Source: Eledone cirrhosa
Lineage: Eukaryota
Assembly (NCBI GenBank): GCA_964016885.1
Contig: OZ024745.1
Location: 22,196,001 to 22,260,000, forward strand
Length of the DNA stretch: 64,000 nucleotides
Direction of reading: 5' to 3'
Shown in pieces: positions 4,348 to 29,720 of this stretch. Position 1 is the first letter of the stretch, and each line of letters opens with the position of its first letter. The notes beneath the pieces were generated by a model, which did no database searches, had not been told where the DNA came from, and saw only the letters and a list, made by a program, of their open reading frames with translations. Both the position numbers and the translations under genes were made by a program.

Positions 4348-5805
4348 TCCTTATCAAAATATGAATAAAAAGTTTGATTTTTCTGACTCAGTCGTAAAAA
4401 TGAAATGTAACAACAATGACCTTTGTTTAGGTCATCATCCGAGACGGAAGTGAAGAAGGGAGGTAATTATCTTCATACCAAAGACTCAGCCCCAACACTT
4501 GTAACAGGATGGACGCCACCAAAGGCCTATTGGTGGTGTTAAAATTGCTGATATATATCTGCCACCAAATAGATAAAGAGTATTTTCAATAGGCTTCTAT
4601 ACAGTTTTCGCCTACCAAATTTTCCACACATGATTTCTGTTGATCCGAGGCTATAATAGAAAATACTTGTCTATCGTATGCAAAAACGATAAAATTGCCG
4701 ACTCTGGTGTTTATATTGAATATTAAAAAGCATTTTCTTTAACACTGCATCAATGTCTTTCGAAAAGAATAAAATATGCTGAATGAATAGAACAGGGGAA
4801 CATGATCATGAGTGTATGTGTTTGTAATTGTGCGTGTGTGAATGTGAGTATATGAGTGTGGTTGTGAGAGTGTATGTATATATCTGTATGTGTATTTCAT
4901 AATGGCTTAGTTAAGAGCCATCAATTTCAAAATATTTTCCCCTATTTACTGTTATTTTCGTCTTCCACAGTGAATTACAGATTGTTCTGGCTACTACATT
5001 ATGCCTCAAGGGTGTGTGTGTGTGTGCCTCTGTGTGTGTGTGTGTGCCAAGAAGTAAAAAGTCTTAGCATTGACTATCATTTAAGTAGTTATGGCCTGTA
5101 AGTGATTAAATATCTAACATTATCTATAATTGTACCAGCAAGGTTCATCTGTGTATAGGTGTGTGTTTTCTATGTATGTGTGTATTTGTGTCTTTTCTGT
5201 GTGTGTGTGTGTGTGTGTGTGTGTATGTGTGTATGTTTGTACGTGAATGGTGTACGTACATATGTACACACAGAACAATTATAGTCAACTTTGCCAACGT
5301 TTACTCGGCAAGGAGGATTTATTAATCCGACTTTAATTCTTCACACACCATGTTGATAATTGTGTTCTATTGACGAGAAGATTCAGTAATGATGCTGCTA
5401 GCTTGCCTCTGTTAGTTATAATAGTAGTGTGTTTCGTATAGCTGGTGACACCATATTGTTAATCCTGGTGTTGATTTAATGGTTCTTCTAGCAGAGGCTG
5501 GCCGCCGTAGTATTGCTGGAATTTTCTGTGTATTCAACCCCAGGTTATTACTGCTTTTTACTATGTGGAGCGAATCCTGGATCACACACACACACACACA
5601 CGCACACACACACACACACACACACACACACACACACACACACACACACACACACACACACACACACACACACACACACACACACACACACACACACACA
5701 CACAGAAAGAGATGTCAACATGAATGGACCTGTTATTTTTATCTAAAGACATTTTTTCCAATTCCGTCCCGCCCATCCCCTCAATCTATTTTATTTCTCA
5801 TTCTT

Positions 5806-5841
5806 TCTTCTGATGAAGGACTAGCGTCCGAAACGTCAAGA
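5806..5841 (+). ncRNA. Minimal type I hammerhead ribozyme
   Basis: TCTT CTGATGA A GGAC-TAGC-GTCC GAAAC GTC AAGA: stem I TCTT/AAGA, 4-bp stem II, palindromic ACGT stem III, GUC cleavage triplet. Confidence 0.75.
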
Positions 5842-6130
5842 CCCTCTTCCTGCTATATCAAGCGTTAACCTAATATATACCTTCCATATACTGTACCGAT
5901 TGTGTTGTTATTTCTGTTTACCTTTTACATACATACATATATGTATATATAGTAAAATAACGGAGCAAAGGACTCGCGTATAATCCTGGTTTGAAATTCC
6001 TGTAAAGAAAAACACACTCTTCTGTGTCTTTCCCCTCTATATATTGTATTTTTTTATATATGTATATATATATATATATATATATATATATATATATATA
6101 TATATATATATATATATATATATATATATA

Positions 6131-6228
6131 CAGGGTGTCCCAAAAATTGTATACATACTTTGATTATCTGTACATGCACTATTTATTAGAATGCGGTTGA
6201 AGTAGGTATACATTTTTTGGACACCCTG
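6131..6228. mobile_element. Tc1/mariner-type MITE
   Basis: TIRs CAGGGTGTCCCAAAAATTGTATAC / GTATACATTTTTTGGACACCCTG, at the edge of (TA)n. Confidence 0.8.
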
Positions 6229-6267
6229 TGTATAATATATATATACATATACAAATTAACACATGTT

Positions 6268-25900: not shown

Positions 25901-28900
25901 CTAAACTGATACGTGCATATATGTATGTGTACCTGTATGCATATGTATATATATATGTATATATATATATATATATATGTGCATGCTACTGTACGTCTGT
26001 ATACATATATGTATGTTCGTATACATGCATACTTACATTTAAGTAAGTGCCATACTAAGAGTGAGAAATGAAATTTCGTTTTCATTTTGTTTCAATTTAT
26101 CGTTTTCGGTATGCCTGACCGATTTAACTCACTCAATATGCAAATTAGGCTGCTCAGCCGTTAATTTTCATAAGGAAAGTATATACTTTCGAACGTTCAA
26201 CTATCTGGCAGATGGGTAAACGGTGCTGATGATAGCTAACAAGCTTGAAACTAGTACATCGTTCCTGTGTCAGTGTTGAACAAAAAGGTGACGTGGTTGC
26301 CTTAACACCGTATGGCATAAATTCAGGCTGTTCAGTTTGTTTACAAACGAACAAAGCGACGTTATAATAAGCGCCGCTAAACTGATACGTGCATATATGT
26401 ATGTGTACCTGTATGCATATGTATATATATATGTATATATATATATATATGTGCATGCTACTGTACGTCTGTATACATATATGTATGTACGTATACATGC
26501 ATACTTACATTTAAGTAAGTGCCATACTAAGAGTGAGAAATGAAATTTCGTTTTCATTTTGTTTCAATTTATCGTTTTCCGTATGCCTGACCGATTTAAC
26601 TCACTCAATATGCAAATTAGGCTGCTCAGCCGTTAATTTTCATAAGGAAAGTATATACTTTCGAACGTTCAACTATCTGGCAGATGGGTAAACGGTGCTG
26701 ATGATAGCTAACAAGCTTGAAACTAGTACATCGTTCCTGTGTCAGTGTTGAACAAAAAGGTGACGTGGTTGCCTTAACACCGTATGGCATAAATTCAGGC
26801 TGTTCAGTTTGTTTACAAACGAACAAAGCGACGTTATAATAAGCGCCGCTAAACTGATACGTGCATATATGTATGTGTACCTGTATGCATATGTATATAT
26901 ATATGTATATATATATATATATGTGCATGCTACTGTACGTCTGTATACATATATGTATGTACGTATACATGCATACTTACATTTAAGTAAGTGCCATACT
27001 AAGAGTGAGAAATGAAATTTCGTTTTCATTTTGTTTCAATTTATCGTTTTCGGTATGCCTGACCGATTTAACTCACTCAATATGCAAATTAGGCTGCTCA
27101 GCCGTTAATTTTCATAAGGAAAGTATATACTTTCGAACGTTCAACTATCTGGCAGATGGGTAAACGGTGCTGATGATATTTAACAAGCTTGAAACTAGTA
27201 CATCGTTCCTGTGTCAGTGTTGAACAAAAAGGTGACGTGGTTGCCTTAACACCGTATGGCATAAATTCAGGCTGTTCAGTTTGTTTACAAACGAACAAAG
27301 CGACGTTATAATAAGCGCCGCTAAACTGATACGTGCATATATGTATGTGTACCTGTATGCATATGTATATATATATGTATATATATATATATATATATAT
27401 GTGCATGCTACTGTACGTCTGTATACATATATGTATGTTCGTATACATGCATACTTACATTTAAGTAAGTGCCATACTAAGAGTGAGAAATGAAATTTCG
27501 TTTTCATTTTGTTTCAATTTATCGTTTTCGGTATGCCTGACCGACTTAACTCACTCAATATGCAAATTAGGCTGCTCAGCCGTTAATTTTCATAAGGAAA
27601 GTATATACTTTCGAACGTTCAACTATCTGGCAGATGGGTAAACGGTGCTGATGATAGCTAACAAGCTTGAAACTAGTACATCGTTCCTGTGTCAGTGTTG
27701 AACAAAAAGGTGACGTGGTTGCCTTAACACCGTATGGCATAAATTCAGGCTGTTCAGTTTGTTTACAAACGAACAAAGCGACGTTATAATAAGCGCCGCT
27801 AAACTGATACGTGCATATATGTATGTGTACCTGTATGCATATGTATATATATATGTATATATATATATATATGTGCATGCTACTGTACGTCTGTATACAT
27901 ATATGTATGTACGTATACATGCATACTTACATTTAAGTAAGTGCCATACTAAGAGTGAGAAATGAAATTTCGTTTTCATTTTGTTTCAATTTATCGTTTT
28001 CCGTATGCCTGACCGATTTAACTCACTCAATATGCAAATTAGGCTGCTCAGCCGTTAATTTTCATAAGGAAAGTATATACTTTCGAACGTTCAACTATCT
28101 GGCAGATGGGTAAACGGTGCTGATGATAGCTAACAAGCTTGAAACTAGTACATCGTTCCTGTGTCAGTGTTGAACAAAAAGGTGACGTGGTTGCCTTAAC
28201 ACCGTATGGCATAAATTCAGGCTGTTCAGTTTGTTTACAAACGAACAAAGCGACGTTATAATAAGCGCCGCTAAACTGATACGTGCATATATGTATGTGT
28301 ACCTGTATGCATATGTATATATATATGTATATATATATATATATGTGCATGCTACTGTACGTCTGTATACATATATGTATGTACGTATACATGCATACTT
28401 ACATTTAAGTAAGTGCCATACTAAGAGTGAGAAATGAAATTTCGTTTTCATTTTGTTTCAATTTATCGTTTTCGGTATGCCTGACCGATTTAACTCACTC
28501 AATATGCAAATTAGGCTGCTCAGCCGTTAATTTTCATAAGGAAAGTATATACTTTCGAACGTTCAACTATCTGGCAGATGGGTAAACGGTGCTGATGATA
28601 GCTAACAAGCTTGAAACTAGTACATCGTTCCTGTGTCAGTGTTGAACAAAAAGGTGACGTGGTTGCCTTAACACCGTATGGCATAAATTTAGGCTGTTCA
28701 GTTTGTTTACAAACGAACAAAGCGACGTTATAATAAGCGCCGCTAAACTGATACGTGCATATATGTATGTGTACCTGTATGCATATGTATATATATATGT
28801 ATATATATATATATATATGTGCATGCTACTGTACGTCTGTATACATATATGTATGTACGTATACATGCATACTTACATTTAAGTAAGTGCCATACTAAGA

Positions 28901-29412
28901 GTGAGAAATGAAATTTCGTTTTCATTTTGTTTCAATTTATCGTTTTCGGTATGCCTGACCGATTTAACTCACTCAATATGCAAATTAGGCTGCTCAGCCG
29001 TTAATTTTCATAAGGAAAGTATATACTTTCGAACGTTCAACTATCTGGCAGATGGGTAAACGGTGCTGATGATAGCTAACAAGCTTGAAACTAGTACATC
29101 GTTCCTGTGTCAGTGTTGAACAAAAAGGTGACGTGGTTGCCTTAACACCGTATGGCATAAATTCAGGCTGTTCAGTTTGTTTACAAACGAACAAAGCGAC
29201 GTTATAATAAGCGCCGCTAAACTGATACGTGCATATATGTATGTGTACCTGTATGCATATGTATATATATATGTATATATATATATATATATGTGCATGC
29301 TACTGTACGTCTGTATACATATATGTATGTACGTATACATGCATACTTACATTTAAGTAAGTGCCATACTAAGAGTGAGAAATGAAATTTCGTTTTCATT
29401 TTGTTTCAATTT
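22904..29412 (+). mobile_element. Tandem array of ~13.5 x 464-478-bp hammerhead-containing units (retrozyme-like), with an inverted 5' segment
   Basis: Near-identical units whose length differs only in an internal (TA)n; 22904-23038 is the reverse complement of 23070-23206; (TA)n on both flanks. Confidence 0.92.
23383..23427 (+). ncRNA. Minimal type I hammerhead ribozyme, first of 13
   Basis: AACGGTG CTGATGA T AGCT-AACA-AGCT T GAA ACTAGT A CATCGTT. Other copies start at 23855, 24331, 24807, 25271, 25743, 26219, 26691, 27163, 27641, 28113, 28585 and 29059. Confidence 0.85.
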
Positions 29413-29549
29413 ATATATATATTTATATATATATATATATATATATATATATATATTTGTATTTTTATATATATATATATATATATATATATATATATAT
29501 ATATATATATATATATATATATATATACATATATACATACATGCATGTG

Positions 29550-29720
29550 TGTTTCTCAAATTGTTCTTCCATTCCTCGCTATTCTCACTCTCTATTTTTT
29601 TATTTCATATTCCAATCTTTTGATGAAGGGCTAATGTCCTAAACGTAGTCTGTTTTCTAACTATATCAGACGTTATAATAATTTATTCATTGTACTGTGT
29701 CGTTTCTGTTCAACTTTTGC
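29550..29720 (+). mobile_element. Decayed relative of the 5750-5930 HHR element
   Basis: TTGATGAAGGGCTAATGTCCTAAACGT vs CTGATGAAGGACTAGCGTCCGAAACGT, with similar flanks (TCTATTTT..TTTC, CTATATCA..CGTTA, TTTCTGTT). Confidence 0.55.

Follow-up and report, generated by a model that had tools for sequence, protein, structure and literature searches.

How Penelope-like elements (PLEs) come to have pseudo-LTRs (pLTRs), incomplete tandems, 5' copies in inverted orientation and a tail at one end is poorly understood. In vitro work on the Poseidon PAc showed that the tail is set by two internal RT starts on the downstream side of the hammerhead, and that both target strands, at AT-rich targets, are cut and extended (Frangieh et al. 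2024, PMC11167929); no RNA reads ended at the hammerhead site in that work, and the 5' limit and joining of the cDNA lay outside its scope. Non-LTR retrozymes are tandemly arranged units that code for no protein and contain a single type I hammerhead apiece; they occur dispersed, from monomers up to multimers (PMC7229834; bioRxiv 10.64898/2026.07.22.740005), and PLE pLTRs have been proposed as their source (PMC7229834, by Cervera and de la Pena, 2020; Li et al. 2026). Naiads are described with an N-terminal endonuclease and without canonical hammerheads (PMC8557442).

The window, that is, the whole 64-kb stretch of DNA analysed here, is quite probably a pile-up, in TA microsatellites, of coding PLE ends and non-coding tandem units with hammerheads, all of which Penelope-type RT/GIY-YIG enzymes (mostly Hydra clade) probably inserted, in which the hairpins are likely twin strong-stop cDNAs. 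Hammerheads, PLE ends and retrozyme-like units are known kinds of sequence, and the families themselves are new members; the fold-backs, which are not a fixed family, are new here. The window contains the following features:

5707 to 5930, plus strand: family A, the 3' end left by 5' truncation of a Neptune-like PLE; minimal hammerhead, core at 5810 (descriptor)
7050 to 7509, minus strand: family B, piece of a non-coding tandem unit of 630 bp whose hammerhead (core 7399) has a long stem III
7577 to 7796, plus strand: family C fold-back, copy 1, degenerate and failing the descriptor (self-comparison)
8601 to 13090, plus strand: Hy, Hydra-clade PLE with RT-GIY-YIG frame, long 3' UTR and hammerhead core at 12935
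13108 to 13470, plus strand: family D, a terminally redundant monomer; its hammerhead has the core at 13241
16247 to 16443, minus strand: family F hairpin and tail; both arms end within the parent's hammerhead loop II, core missing
16483 to 16710, minus strand: family H hairpin and tail, end of a third Hydra element; hammerhead core CAGAAGA
16723 to 17747, no single strand: family D head-to-head insertion, ~1.9 units on minus and ~1.3 on plus; U3-A8 hammerhead at 16931-
17757 to 17950, plus strand: family C fold-back, copy 2; the inverted arm bears hammerhead 17812-
18099 to 18272, minus strand: family C fold-back, copy 3; the inverted arm bears hammerhead 18230+
20135 to 20396, no single strand: family E head-to-head insertion, long end on minus and short end on plus; hammerhead 20311+
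20427 to 20999, minus strand: older family G copy with hammerhead 20732- (descriptor, self-comparison)
22901 to 23041, minus strand: inverted short-end arm of the G array (self-comparison)
23038 to 29414, plus strand: family G array made up of 13.5 units, each 472 bp long with one minimal hammerhead, finishing at the long end in (TA)n
29550 to 29720, plus strand: degenerate family A copy with a mutated hammerhead core; 72% match to 5789-5878

Hammerhead motifs and insertion sites

Scanning the full 64 kb with a type I descriptor yielded 22 matches, of which one, at 20271, was discarded as a variant core within a palindrome, leaving 21 hammerhead motifs. The 472-bp array supplies 12 of these, with 12 of its 13 ribozyme positions passing, and the others lie at 5810+, 7399-, 12935+, 13241+, 16931- (with a U3-A8 variant core), 17812-, 18230+, 20311+ and 20732-; the scan found no hammerhead in the window outside 5750-29720. 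Between 5750 and 23500 there were 11 descriptor matches, nine with a canonical core, against a mean of 0.135 and a maximum of 2 when this interval was shuffled, and the canonical core appeared in none of 200 dinucleotide shuffles. The hammerheads are real as sequence motifs, and self-cleavage is predicted for them; we infer it, as well as circular RNA and the transcription start site discussed below, from DNA. An Rfam scan returned no hammerhead family among the 150 of 259 matches listed. The Rfam matches were mostly of microsatellites to miRNA models and scored under the gathering thresholds.

A copy with a located 3' end was scored as TA-flanked if a run of at least (TA)4 lay no more than 14 nt from that end, using for each family the first 30 matches by position, mostly on contig C1. 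Such a flank was present in 28/29 copies of F, 26/26 of Hy, 21/26 of C, 22/29 of H, 21/30 of A and 8/18 of G, compared with 11.5% of 15,840 background positions and 18/114 copies of an unrelated repeat. Another repeat was interrupted (an empty site) at 2 of 401 sites, compared with 180 of 400 random positions, a control that takes in positions inside the same families and tandem arrays. Two empty sites are too few to separate pre-existing from newly made (TA)n, and TSDs are unreadable inside (TA)n. Contigs from four runs did not bridge the one F locus at which they were compared.

The sequence-only reading had counted about 20 motifs in at least six families, mostly TA-flanked, often with an inverted 5' piece and free of poly(A) tails. 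Its count agrees with the 21 motifs, which come from seven families with a passing motif, yet these amount to 10 independent sites. TA flanks are in excess of chance, self-comparison recovered the inverted pieces, and no poly(A) tails were seen.

Coding parents and non-coding units

Judged by linked reading frames, five of the nine families are ends of coding PLEs, namely, A, Hy, F and H, and probably C. The Hy frame (8587-11343) contains RT followed by GIY-YIG and has three in-frame stops; in the ORF list the RT motifs fall in 8587-10215 and GIY-YIG in 10891-11343, the Pfam match to GIY-YIG being below the cut-off. Its UTR is continuous with the UTRs of other copies, its tail has 296 exact matches genome-wide, and its ORF, which resembles Hydra-1_Obim by eye, shows 43% and 37% identity to the intact Hydra ORF. 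That intact element, of 719 aa at G000:C1:11229079, is the parent of family F (4,452 exact 48-mer matches genome-wide) and has a U3-A8 core; a parent with a C3-G8 core had 0 matches.

Hy carries RWRA, DKT, a CNCRVSINC linker, CNLC and CPH, and the F parent RWRT, DKT, a CNCPDRSIC linker, CNLC and CKH. Both have the C-terminal GIY-YIG, RWK-type motif, DKT, CxCX5C linker and CxxC/CxH around conserved E and N of the Hydra clade, lack CCHH, and combine a hammerhead (a U3-A8 variant in the F parent) with (TA)n insertion. They exceed the length given as generally <3 kb, at 3.1 kb for the F parent unit and 4.5 kb for the window copy of Hy, because of long 3' UTRs. A length of <3 kb is a descriptive Hydra trait, not a diagnostic one. 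By these marks, the long element of the window belongs to the Hydra clade. Family H (16,488 exact tail matches) has a Hydra endonuclease upstream in L390 and an ORF immediately past the tail in L408. Family C, which comprises several subfamilies with 16,165 exact tail matches, has a Hydra endonuclease 2.7 kb upstream in L502, one of four long copies; its parent is probably Hydra, as judged from this single copy across 2.7 kb of low-complexity DNA. On these motifs, at least three Hydra families are present.

Longer copies of family A (L006, L026 and L029; 8,362 exact 24-mer matches genome-wide for the family) extend upstream into a GIY-YIG frame with a CX4CxxC linker and CCHH. The parent shows CSRSRCNTC, CSLC and two histidines, then a stop and the UTR, as in the C-terminal endonuclease and linker of Neptune, and, on this endonuclease/linker part, appears Neptune-like; an assignment to the Penelope/Poseidon type was dropped because the linker points to Neptune. 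Pfam gave no family in three parent frames, including the 158-aa family A piece.

Units of G (472 bp), D (~315 bp) and B (630 bp) run head to tail into the next unit with no ORF between, and fit non-LTR retrozymes as closed non-coding tandem units for which circles and cleavage are predicted. Exact matches number 24,296 for G, counting array units and subfamilies, 1,559 for D and 736 for B; G arrays are also dispersed elsewhere in the genome, and B has several pairs ~630 bp apart and partial dimers in L077, L085, L087 and L095. The 5' ends of D and G are scattered, with no cluster at the hammerhead cut. A single rolling-circle pass over one circle was rejected for the 13.5-unit G array, since variants repeat in non-adjacent units, which requires a mixed multimer template or later duplication. 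Family E (136 exact matches), placed in neither group, had no linked ORF in eight loci with ~6 kb upstream; the ORF in L171 was set aside because (AT)24 intervenes and it belongs to Hy.

The sequence-only reading had regarded the families as non-coding and the cluster as a PLE-driven retrozyme radiation beside a Naiad. The non-coding label stands for G, D and B and falls for A, Hy, F and H, and probably for C. Of the radiation, the PLE enzymes, the TA association and the G, D and B tandem units survive, whereas the Naiad driver gives way to the RT-then-GIY-YIG order and the Hydra marks, and the fold-backs are best read otherwise than as retrozymes. The outcome that it named as refuting, all short elements being plain 3' fragments of long autonomous PLEs, holds for five of the nine families.

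Fold-back copies and their possible origin

The best reading of the fold-backs is that PLE reverse transcription produces them afresh at each insertion as by-products, most likely twin strong-stop cDNAs. In family F, 47 of 55 arms end between -5 and +10 relative to an A that follows, at a distance of 29 nt, the start of TATTTAAA, a TATA-like box in the intact Hydra parent, where +1 lies near 11228848 on G000:C1; among 109 F arms from loci not chosen for that end, 20 end at +1, 18 at +2, 12 at -1 to -4 and 6 farther upstream. One F subfamily has TCAGT at +1 (L586), and 2,065 F arms continue through the stop point. In family C, arms stop 1-7 nt short of the core, ~30 nt after TATAAATA, at 12 of 30 loci; 8 are long and 10 shorter, C1-type arm lengths in this C/F analysis being lower bounds. 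No 5' cluster of this kind was seen in Hy, in E or in the majority of H copies. A jump was present in five of the 23 copies whose tail is joined to the 5' UTR, with the 3' piece starting at +2, +2, +4, +42 and +42. The two junctions at +42 begin exactly at the predicted hammerhead cut, +42 being the base that directly follows it; ends at the predicted cut are a minority (~3/30 in a tail-only sample). After the jump, L546, L547 and L539 stop again at +1 or +4. A cap would be expected to leave an untemplated G ahead of +1; such a G was found at only 5 of 11 unexplained junctions.

With the same enzymes and products, the fixed 5' limit could instead reflect RT stalling at RNA structure, the loop II hairpin in F and stem I in C, rather than the RNA 5' end, which we consider unlikely. 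Stalling is possible in F because a weak loop II hairpin has its 3' base at the stop point; the C limit adjoins stem I, and the many F arms that go beyond the stop point and the weak cap-G signal also fit, but the enzyme already traverses the stronger stems II and III, the edge at +1 is sharp, and the ~30-nt TATA spacing recurs in three different upstream sequences. The renewed stops after jumps likewise argue against stalling.

The two arms of a fold-back differ in their 3' ends, one long and one short, in all 25 scored copies of F, in six of six family E pairs by eye, and in 23 of 32 head-to-head insertions of D (one was long+long, none short+short and eight other). F apexes are variable, 23 of 25 being distinct; a single fixed palindromic master for F was rejected, the 24 identical copies that had suggested it being a score-ranking artefact and a positional sample giving variable apexes. 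Snap-back self-priming of one cDNA or antisense template, with endonuclease resolution setting the short end, is still less likely as the origin of the palindromes. It has been proposed for Adineta Penelopes (PMC3846280), arms of one C copy often have variants in common and some apexes are perfectly palindromic; however, the longer arm at the apex can be either one, in many apexes both arms contribute sequence that is not palindromic, or filler is present, pieces with the short end are also found in direct orientation where a jump has taken place (L546, L547), and two start sites were demonstrated in vitro (PMC11167929).

For twin strong-stop cDNAs, we propose that the endonuclease would cut both (TA)n strands, as shown in vitro for another PLE (PMC11167929), and that each cut strand would prime RT at one of two fixed internal RNA sites, as the fixed ends suggest. 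Most of these sites lie just 5' of an RCTC...GAGY hairpin. This motif, defined after viewing the data, follows the end at 8 of 13 sites and is also in a published Hydra 3' end; family B carries the Hydra end hairpin, G lacks it, and D and the short end of H narrowly fail. On a transcript starting inside the pLTR, to which the TATA spacing points, the enzyme would run off the RNA 5' end after ~60 or ~140 nt, at the fixed stop observed. The two short cDNAs would then join head to head at the variable junction seen, or one would jump elsewhere on the RNA and continue, as the jump junctions suggest. The template of G, D and B, which has no fixed 5' end and was read across unit junctions, would be a multimer or circle. 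An intact, very young Hydra element and thousands of product junctions predict a start site, two priming sites sharing a hairpin, template jumps and, now and then, the use of hammerhead-cut RNA.

More tentatively, and rather doubtfully, the Hydra-type PLE mRNA may have redundant termini, as a retroviral genome does. A 41-nt R would extend between the start site inside loop II and the cut made by the hammerhead of the 3' pLTR, and target-primed strong-stop cDNA would transfer through this R to the 3' end; pLTRs and partial tandems would come from LTR-like strand transfer, and the hairpins would be failed transfers and a new, MITE-mimicking class of retro-product.

It is very improbable that all short elements are independent non-coding retrozyme families mobilised by Naiad: G, D and B are closed non-coding units and Octopus is listed with (TA)n-preferring Naiads, but the window ORF is Hydra, there are coding parents for A, Hy, F, H and probably C, and cephalopod Naiads are described as old remnants lacking canonical hammerheads (PMC8557442). 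A Naiad could still be the partner of G alone. Least credible of all, DNA-transposon MITEs with TA target duplications would account for F, C and H as short, palindromic, TA-flanked and near-identical copies in thousands, but not for a tail on one side only, no symmetric terminal inverted repeats, no fixed inherited interior (as the F apexes indicate) and sequence identical to the intact Hydra pLTR and 5' UTR. Short TA-flanked palindromes that pipelines could label MITEs may be retro-products.

Comparison with known systems

Unlike a Naiad, the window ORF has GIY-YIG C-terminal to RT rather than N-terminal, DKT rather than DKG->DKA, and a hammerhead at 12935 in its 3' end. It resembles the Hydra clade of Craig et al. 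(2021, PMC8557442), which includes Hydra-1_Obim, in the C-terminal GIY-YIG, RWK-like motif, DKT, CxCX5C, canonical hammerhead, (TA)n preference, inverted 5'-truncated copy and one-sided tail. The units here (3.1 kb F parent, 4.5 kb window copy) are longer, and the accessible part of that description mentions no class of short hairpins bounded at a start site.

None of the families F, H, C, A and Hy is a retrozyme. G, D and B, known here from DNA, resemble non-LTR retrozymes in unit organisation and, unlike published ones, show PLE integration marks directly (long and short ends, head-to-head arms and TA flanks), which ties non-coding retrozyme units to such marks in an invertebrate. In comparison with the Poseidon PAc work, genomic junctions here fall at a putative start site and, in two cases, exactly at the predicted hammerhead cut. 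The thousands of short hairpins genome-wide, if they are paired premature cDNAs, would reveal the PLE copying mode.

In LTR retroelements, minus-strand strong-stop DNA is primed near the RNA 5' end, giving a short run-off cDNA that needs a template switch. The strong-stop products proposed here differ from it in that they would be primed by cut target DNA rather than tRNA, arise as two per event, usually integrated as a hairpin, and show jumps that land without homology.

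Hammerheads and their TA setting

The source assembly is 3.0 Gb in size, and dinucleotide and trinucleotide repeats are abundant in the window (G000:C5:22196001-22260000); this abundance, along with the similarity of the window ORF to Hydra-1_Obim, suggests an octopus-like host. Scanning the 64 kb with a descriptor for type I hammerheads yielded 22 matches, one of which was discarded; 12 of the 21 kept hammerheads are units of a single 472-bp array. Nine canonical cores were observed in 5750-23500 versus none in 200 shuffles, which together with the kept matches confirms that the motifs claimed in the sequence-only reading are real. 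Nine repeat families associated with hammerheads (A to H and Hy) occur in the window, seven of them with a motif that passes the descriptor. The long element and some further repeats lie as follows.

446-565: solitary family H tail flanked by TA runs (match 485-564), outside the 5750..29720 stretch of the sequence-only reading
6103-6251 and 6841-6996: short palindromes that lack a hammerhead and have ends resembling CAGGGTGTCC, presumably akin to Tc1/mariner MITEs
8601..13090, + strand: Hy, a long Penelope-like element (PLE), with a hammerhead at 12935 in its 3' end
47379-56782: 34-bp satellite, 276 copies, 94% identity

Exact genome-wide matches, which are lower bounds and pool subfamilies and array units, numbered 24,296 for G, 20,753 for the F tail (4,452 for an F 48-mer), 16,488 for H, 16,165 for C, 8,362 for A, 1,559 for D, 736 for B, 296 for Hy, and 136 for E. 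The TA-flank enrichment that the sequence-only reading had proposed to check was borne out: ends were TA-flanked in F (28/29), Hy (26/26), C (21/26), H (22/29), A (21/30), and G (8/18), far above the background (11.5% of positions; 18/114 for an unrelated repeat). Only 2 of 401 insertion blocks interrupted another repeat collinearly versus 180 of 400 random positions, a control that takes in positions inside these same families; this favors insertion into pre-existing microsatellites, and the 2/401 result would look alike under target rearrangement. At L261:1801-5157, an RTE-like LINE in inverted duplication lies directly beside a Hydra insertion, with a TA run starting within the LINE coding sequence, a layout hinting that insertion may itself create some TA runs.

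Insertion ends, template jumps, and fold-back arms

Copies have two fixed 3' ends, one long and one short. Head-to-head insertions had a long end on one side and a short end on the other in 25/25 scored F fold-backs, in 6/6 E pairs (by eye), and in 23/32 D insertions (long+long, 1; short+short, 0; other, 8). This pairing is the one-sided tail of PLEs as described in PMC8557442. Frangieh et al. (PMC11167929) attributed that tail to reverse transcription beginning at two internal positions, each target strand being cut and extended. An RCTC...GAGY hairpin, a motif picked after the data were seen, starts 4 to 8 nt past 8 of the 13 such ends checked (F twice, H long, Hy, C twice, E, and B; shuffle p 0.004-0.02 each); the short ends of H and D come close to it, and D long and the two G ends have none. 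Its presence at the B and E ends suggests that these families may use a Hydra enzyme.

Probably, (TA)n would be cut on both strands, reverse transcription would be primed at two internal RNA sites, the enzyme would run off at the RNA 5' end, and the products would be joined head to head or one of them would jump to another RNA position. The F tail is joined to the 5' UTR in only 23 exact copies, five of which have a short 3' piece fused, without homology, to a site in the interior of a second copy. Counted from the putative start-site A of the F parent, these pieces begin at +2 (L546 and L539), +4 (L547), and +42 (L554 and L555). In three of these copies (L546, L547, and L539), the second piece again stops at +1 or +4. 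Strand transfer guided by an R region, spanning the 41 nt from the putative start site to the predicted hammerhead cut, is doubtful: no scar would be expected of it, and homology does not guide the jumps that are visible. Position +42 is the first base past the predicted cut, and L554 folds back exactly there, so cut RNA may sometimes serve as template, on this indirect evidence. The route is a minority one, and D and G have no 5'-end cluster at their cut sites. Frangieh et al. (PMC11167929) report that cleavage is not required in vitro and that none of their reads ended at the hammerhead site.

The arms of F fold-backs stopped at -5 to +10 of the reference A in 47 of 55 cases (five at +11 to +25; three long), with a probe blind to ends beyond +19. 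This A lies 29 nt past the start of TATTTAAA, within loop II of the parent hammerhead. Among arms from loci not picked by that end (n = 109, with possible double counting of some loci), 20 stopped at +1, 18 at +2, 12 at -1 to -4, and 6 further upstream. In a tail-only sample (n = 30, by eye; six loci shared with the earlier sample), 16 had an arm at -5 to +10, 2 were long, 3 ended near the hammerhead cut, and 9 elsewhere. Family C arms stopped 1 to 7 nt before the core, ~30 nt past TATAAATA, in 12 of 30 loci, with long arms in 8 other loci and shorter ones in the remaining 10, and ~8 of 30 A copies stopped right after a CAGTT (by eye). Several observations speak against a general fixed stop: no comparable 5' cluster was found in Hy, E, or most H copies, 2,065 F arms continue past the stop point, a weak hairpin forms at that point, and of 11 unexplained junctions only 5 have an untemplated G before +1. 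Stalling at RNA structure is an unlikely cause of the F and C limits.

Score-ranked F copies had appeared as identical hairpins, and among the first 30 by position, 23 of 25 apexes (head-to-head junctions) differed; each F hairpin would thus be made at insertion. Snap-back self-priming, proposed for Adineta elements in PMC3846280, is a rather improbable origin for hairpins with one long and one short end, and both-strand cutting with run-off at the RNA 5' end is the more likely reading. The same paper describes TATA and Inr motifs in pseudo-LTRs (pLTRs) and shorter inverted pLTRs.

Coding parents and non-coding tandem units

The families had been described as non-coding, which holds for the G, D, and B units; A, F, and H run into PLE coding parents, as C probably does, judging by one of four long copies. 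When translated, 3 of the 30 top A copies continue into the frame of a C-terminal GIY-YIG domain that carries a CX4CxxC linker and CCHH; family A thus consists of truncated ends of a Neptune-like PLE. F traces to an intact Hydra element of 719 aa; this parent also shows a partial tandem, an inverted 5' copy, and a long end paired with a short one. For H, L390 has a Hydra endonuclease upstream, and in L408 the tail is followed immediately by a Hydra ORF; in the long C copy, a Hydra endonuclease is encoded on the same strand at a distance of 2.7 kb upstream, with low-complexity DNA between. Eight long E loci had no linked ORF. Five F-parent pLTR matches at 3,542-bp spacing, plus one inverted, occur at G000:C1:91473200-91493775, which looks like complete Hydra units arrayed head to tail, and L516 contains a 2.8-kb tandem repeat in which each unit has a single F fold-back and a single Hy fold-back.

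Units of G (472 bp), D (~315 bp), and B (630 bp) run head to tail into the next with no ORF between, and in sequence they fit the non-LTR retrozymes as defined in bioRxiv 10.64898/2026.07.22.740005 and PMC7229834. Their template could have been multimeric or circular, which fits the scattered 5' ends in D and G. The window G array does not stem from one circle copied in a single pass because variants recur in non-adjacent units. Most words of the G unit were found in six runs (four organisms, four studies), one possibly from the source sample. Distant relatives of D form 310-bp tandem arrays at L508:271-1619 and L517:7536-8264.

Hammerhead cores differ within families: the F parent and a single D copy have a U3-A8 pair (L239, L586, window 16931). 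PMC4209133 reports U3-A8 cores, as well as pairs of hammerheads on opposite strands. All H copies read have a CAGAAGA core, whose hammerhead would be expected to be inactive, and the H tail has >16,000 matches.

Relation to described elements

The families are new and their kinds already known; supplements of bioRxiv 10.64898/2026.07.22.740005 may list relatives. In the accessible text of an O. vulgaris repeat paper (among PMC13282606 and PMC12910113), the words "hammerhead" and "ribozyme" are absent. Among the PLE papers listed in literature searches outside subscription journals and repeat databases, none used "strong-stop" (short run-off cDNA) or described hairpins bounded at a start site. 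On this coverage, the hairpins and their jump junctions would be new, and they make the PLE mechanism testable.

The frame at 8587-11343 has RT first, GIY-YIG last, and three in-frame stops, with the motifs RWR, DKT, CNCRVSINC, CNLC, and CPH. Craig et al. 2021 (PMC8557442) recognize Hydra by these features together with canonical hammerheads and (TA)n insertion; Naiad, in their definition, has its endonuclease at the N-terminus, carries DKA, and lacks a canonical hammerhead. The domain order, DKT, linker motifs, and 3'-end hammerhead thus identify the long element, by its sequence features, as Hydra and overturn the earlier naming of Naiad as driver; an all-retrozyme radiation driven by Naiad is highly improbable, and the least credible reading is that the F, C, and H hairpins are MITEs. 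At 10216-10564, the frame carries ~115 extra N/S-rich residues and a 120-bp duplication, both absent from an intact relative; the insert is like the N-rich inserts of Adineta Penelopes (PMC3846280). By eye, the window ORF is similar to Hydra-1_Obim, for which the PMC8557442 supplement gives a (TA)n preference and a hammerhead, and the published Hydra 3' end printed immediately before Hydra-1_Obim also has the RCTC...GAGY hairpin after its hammerhead.
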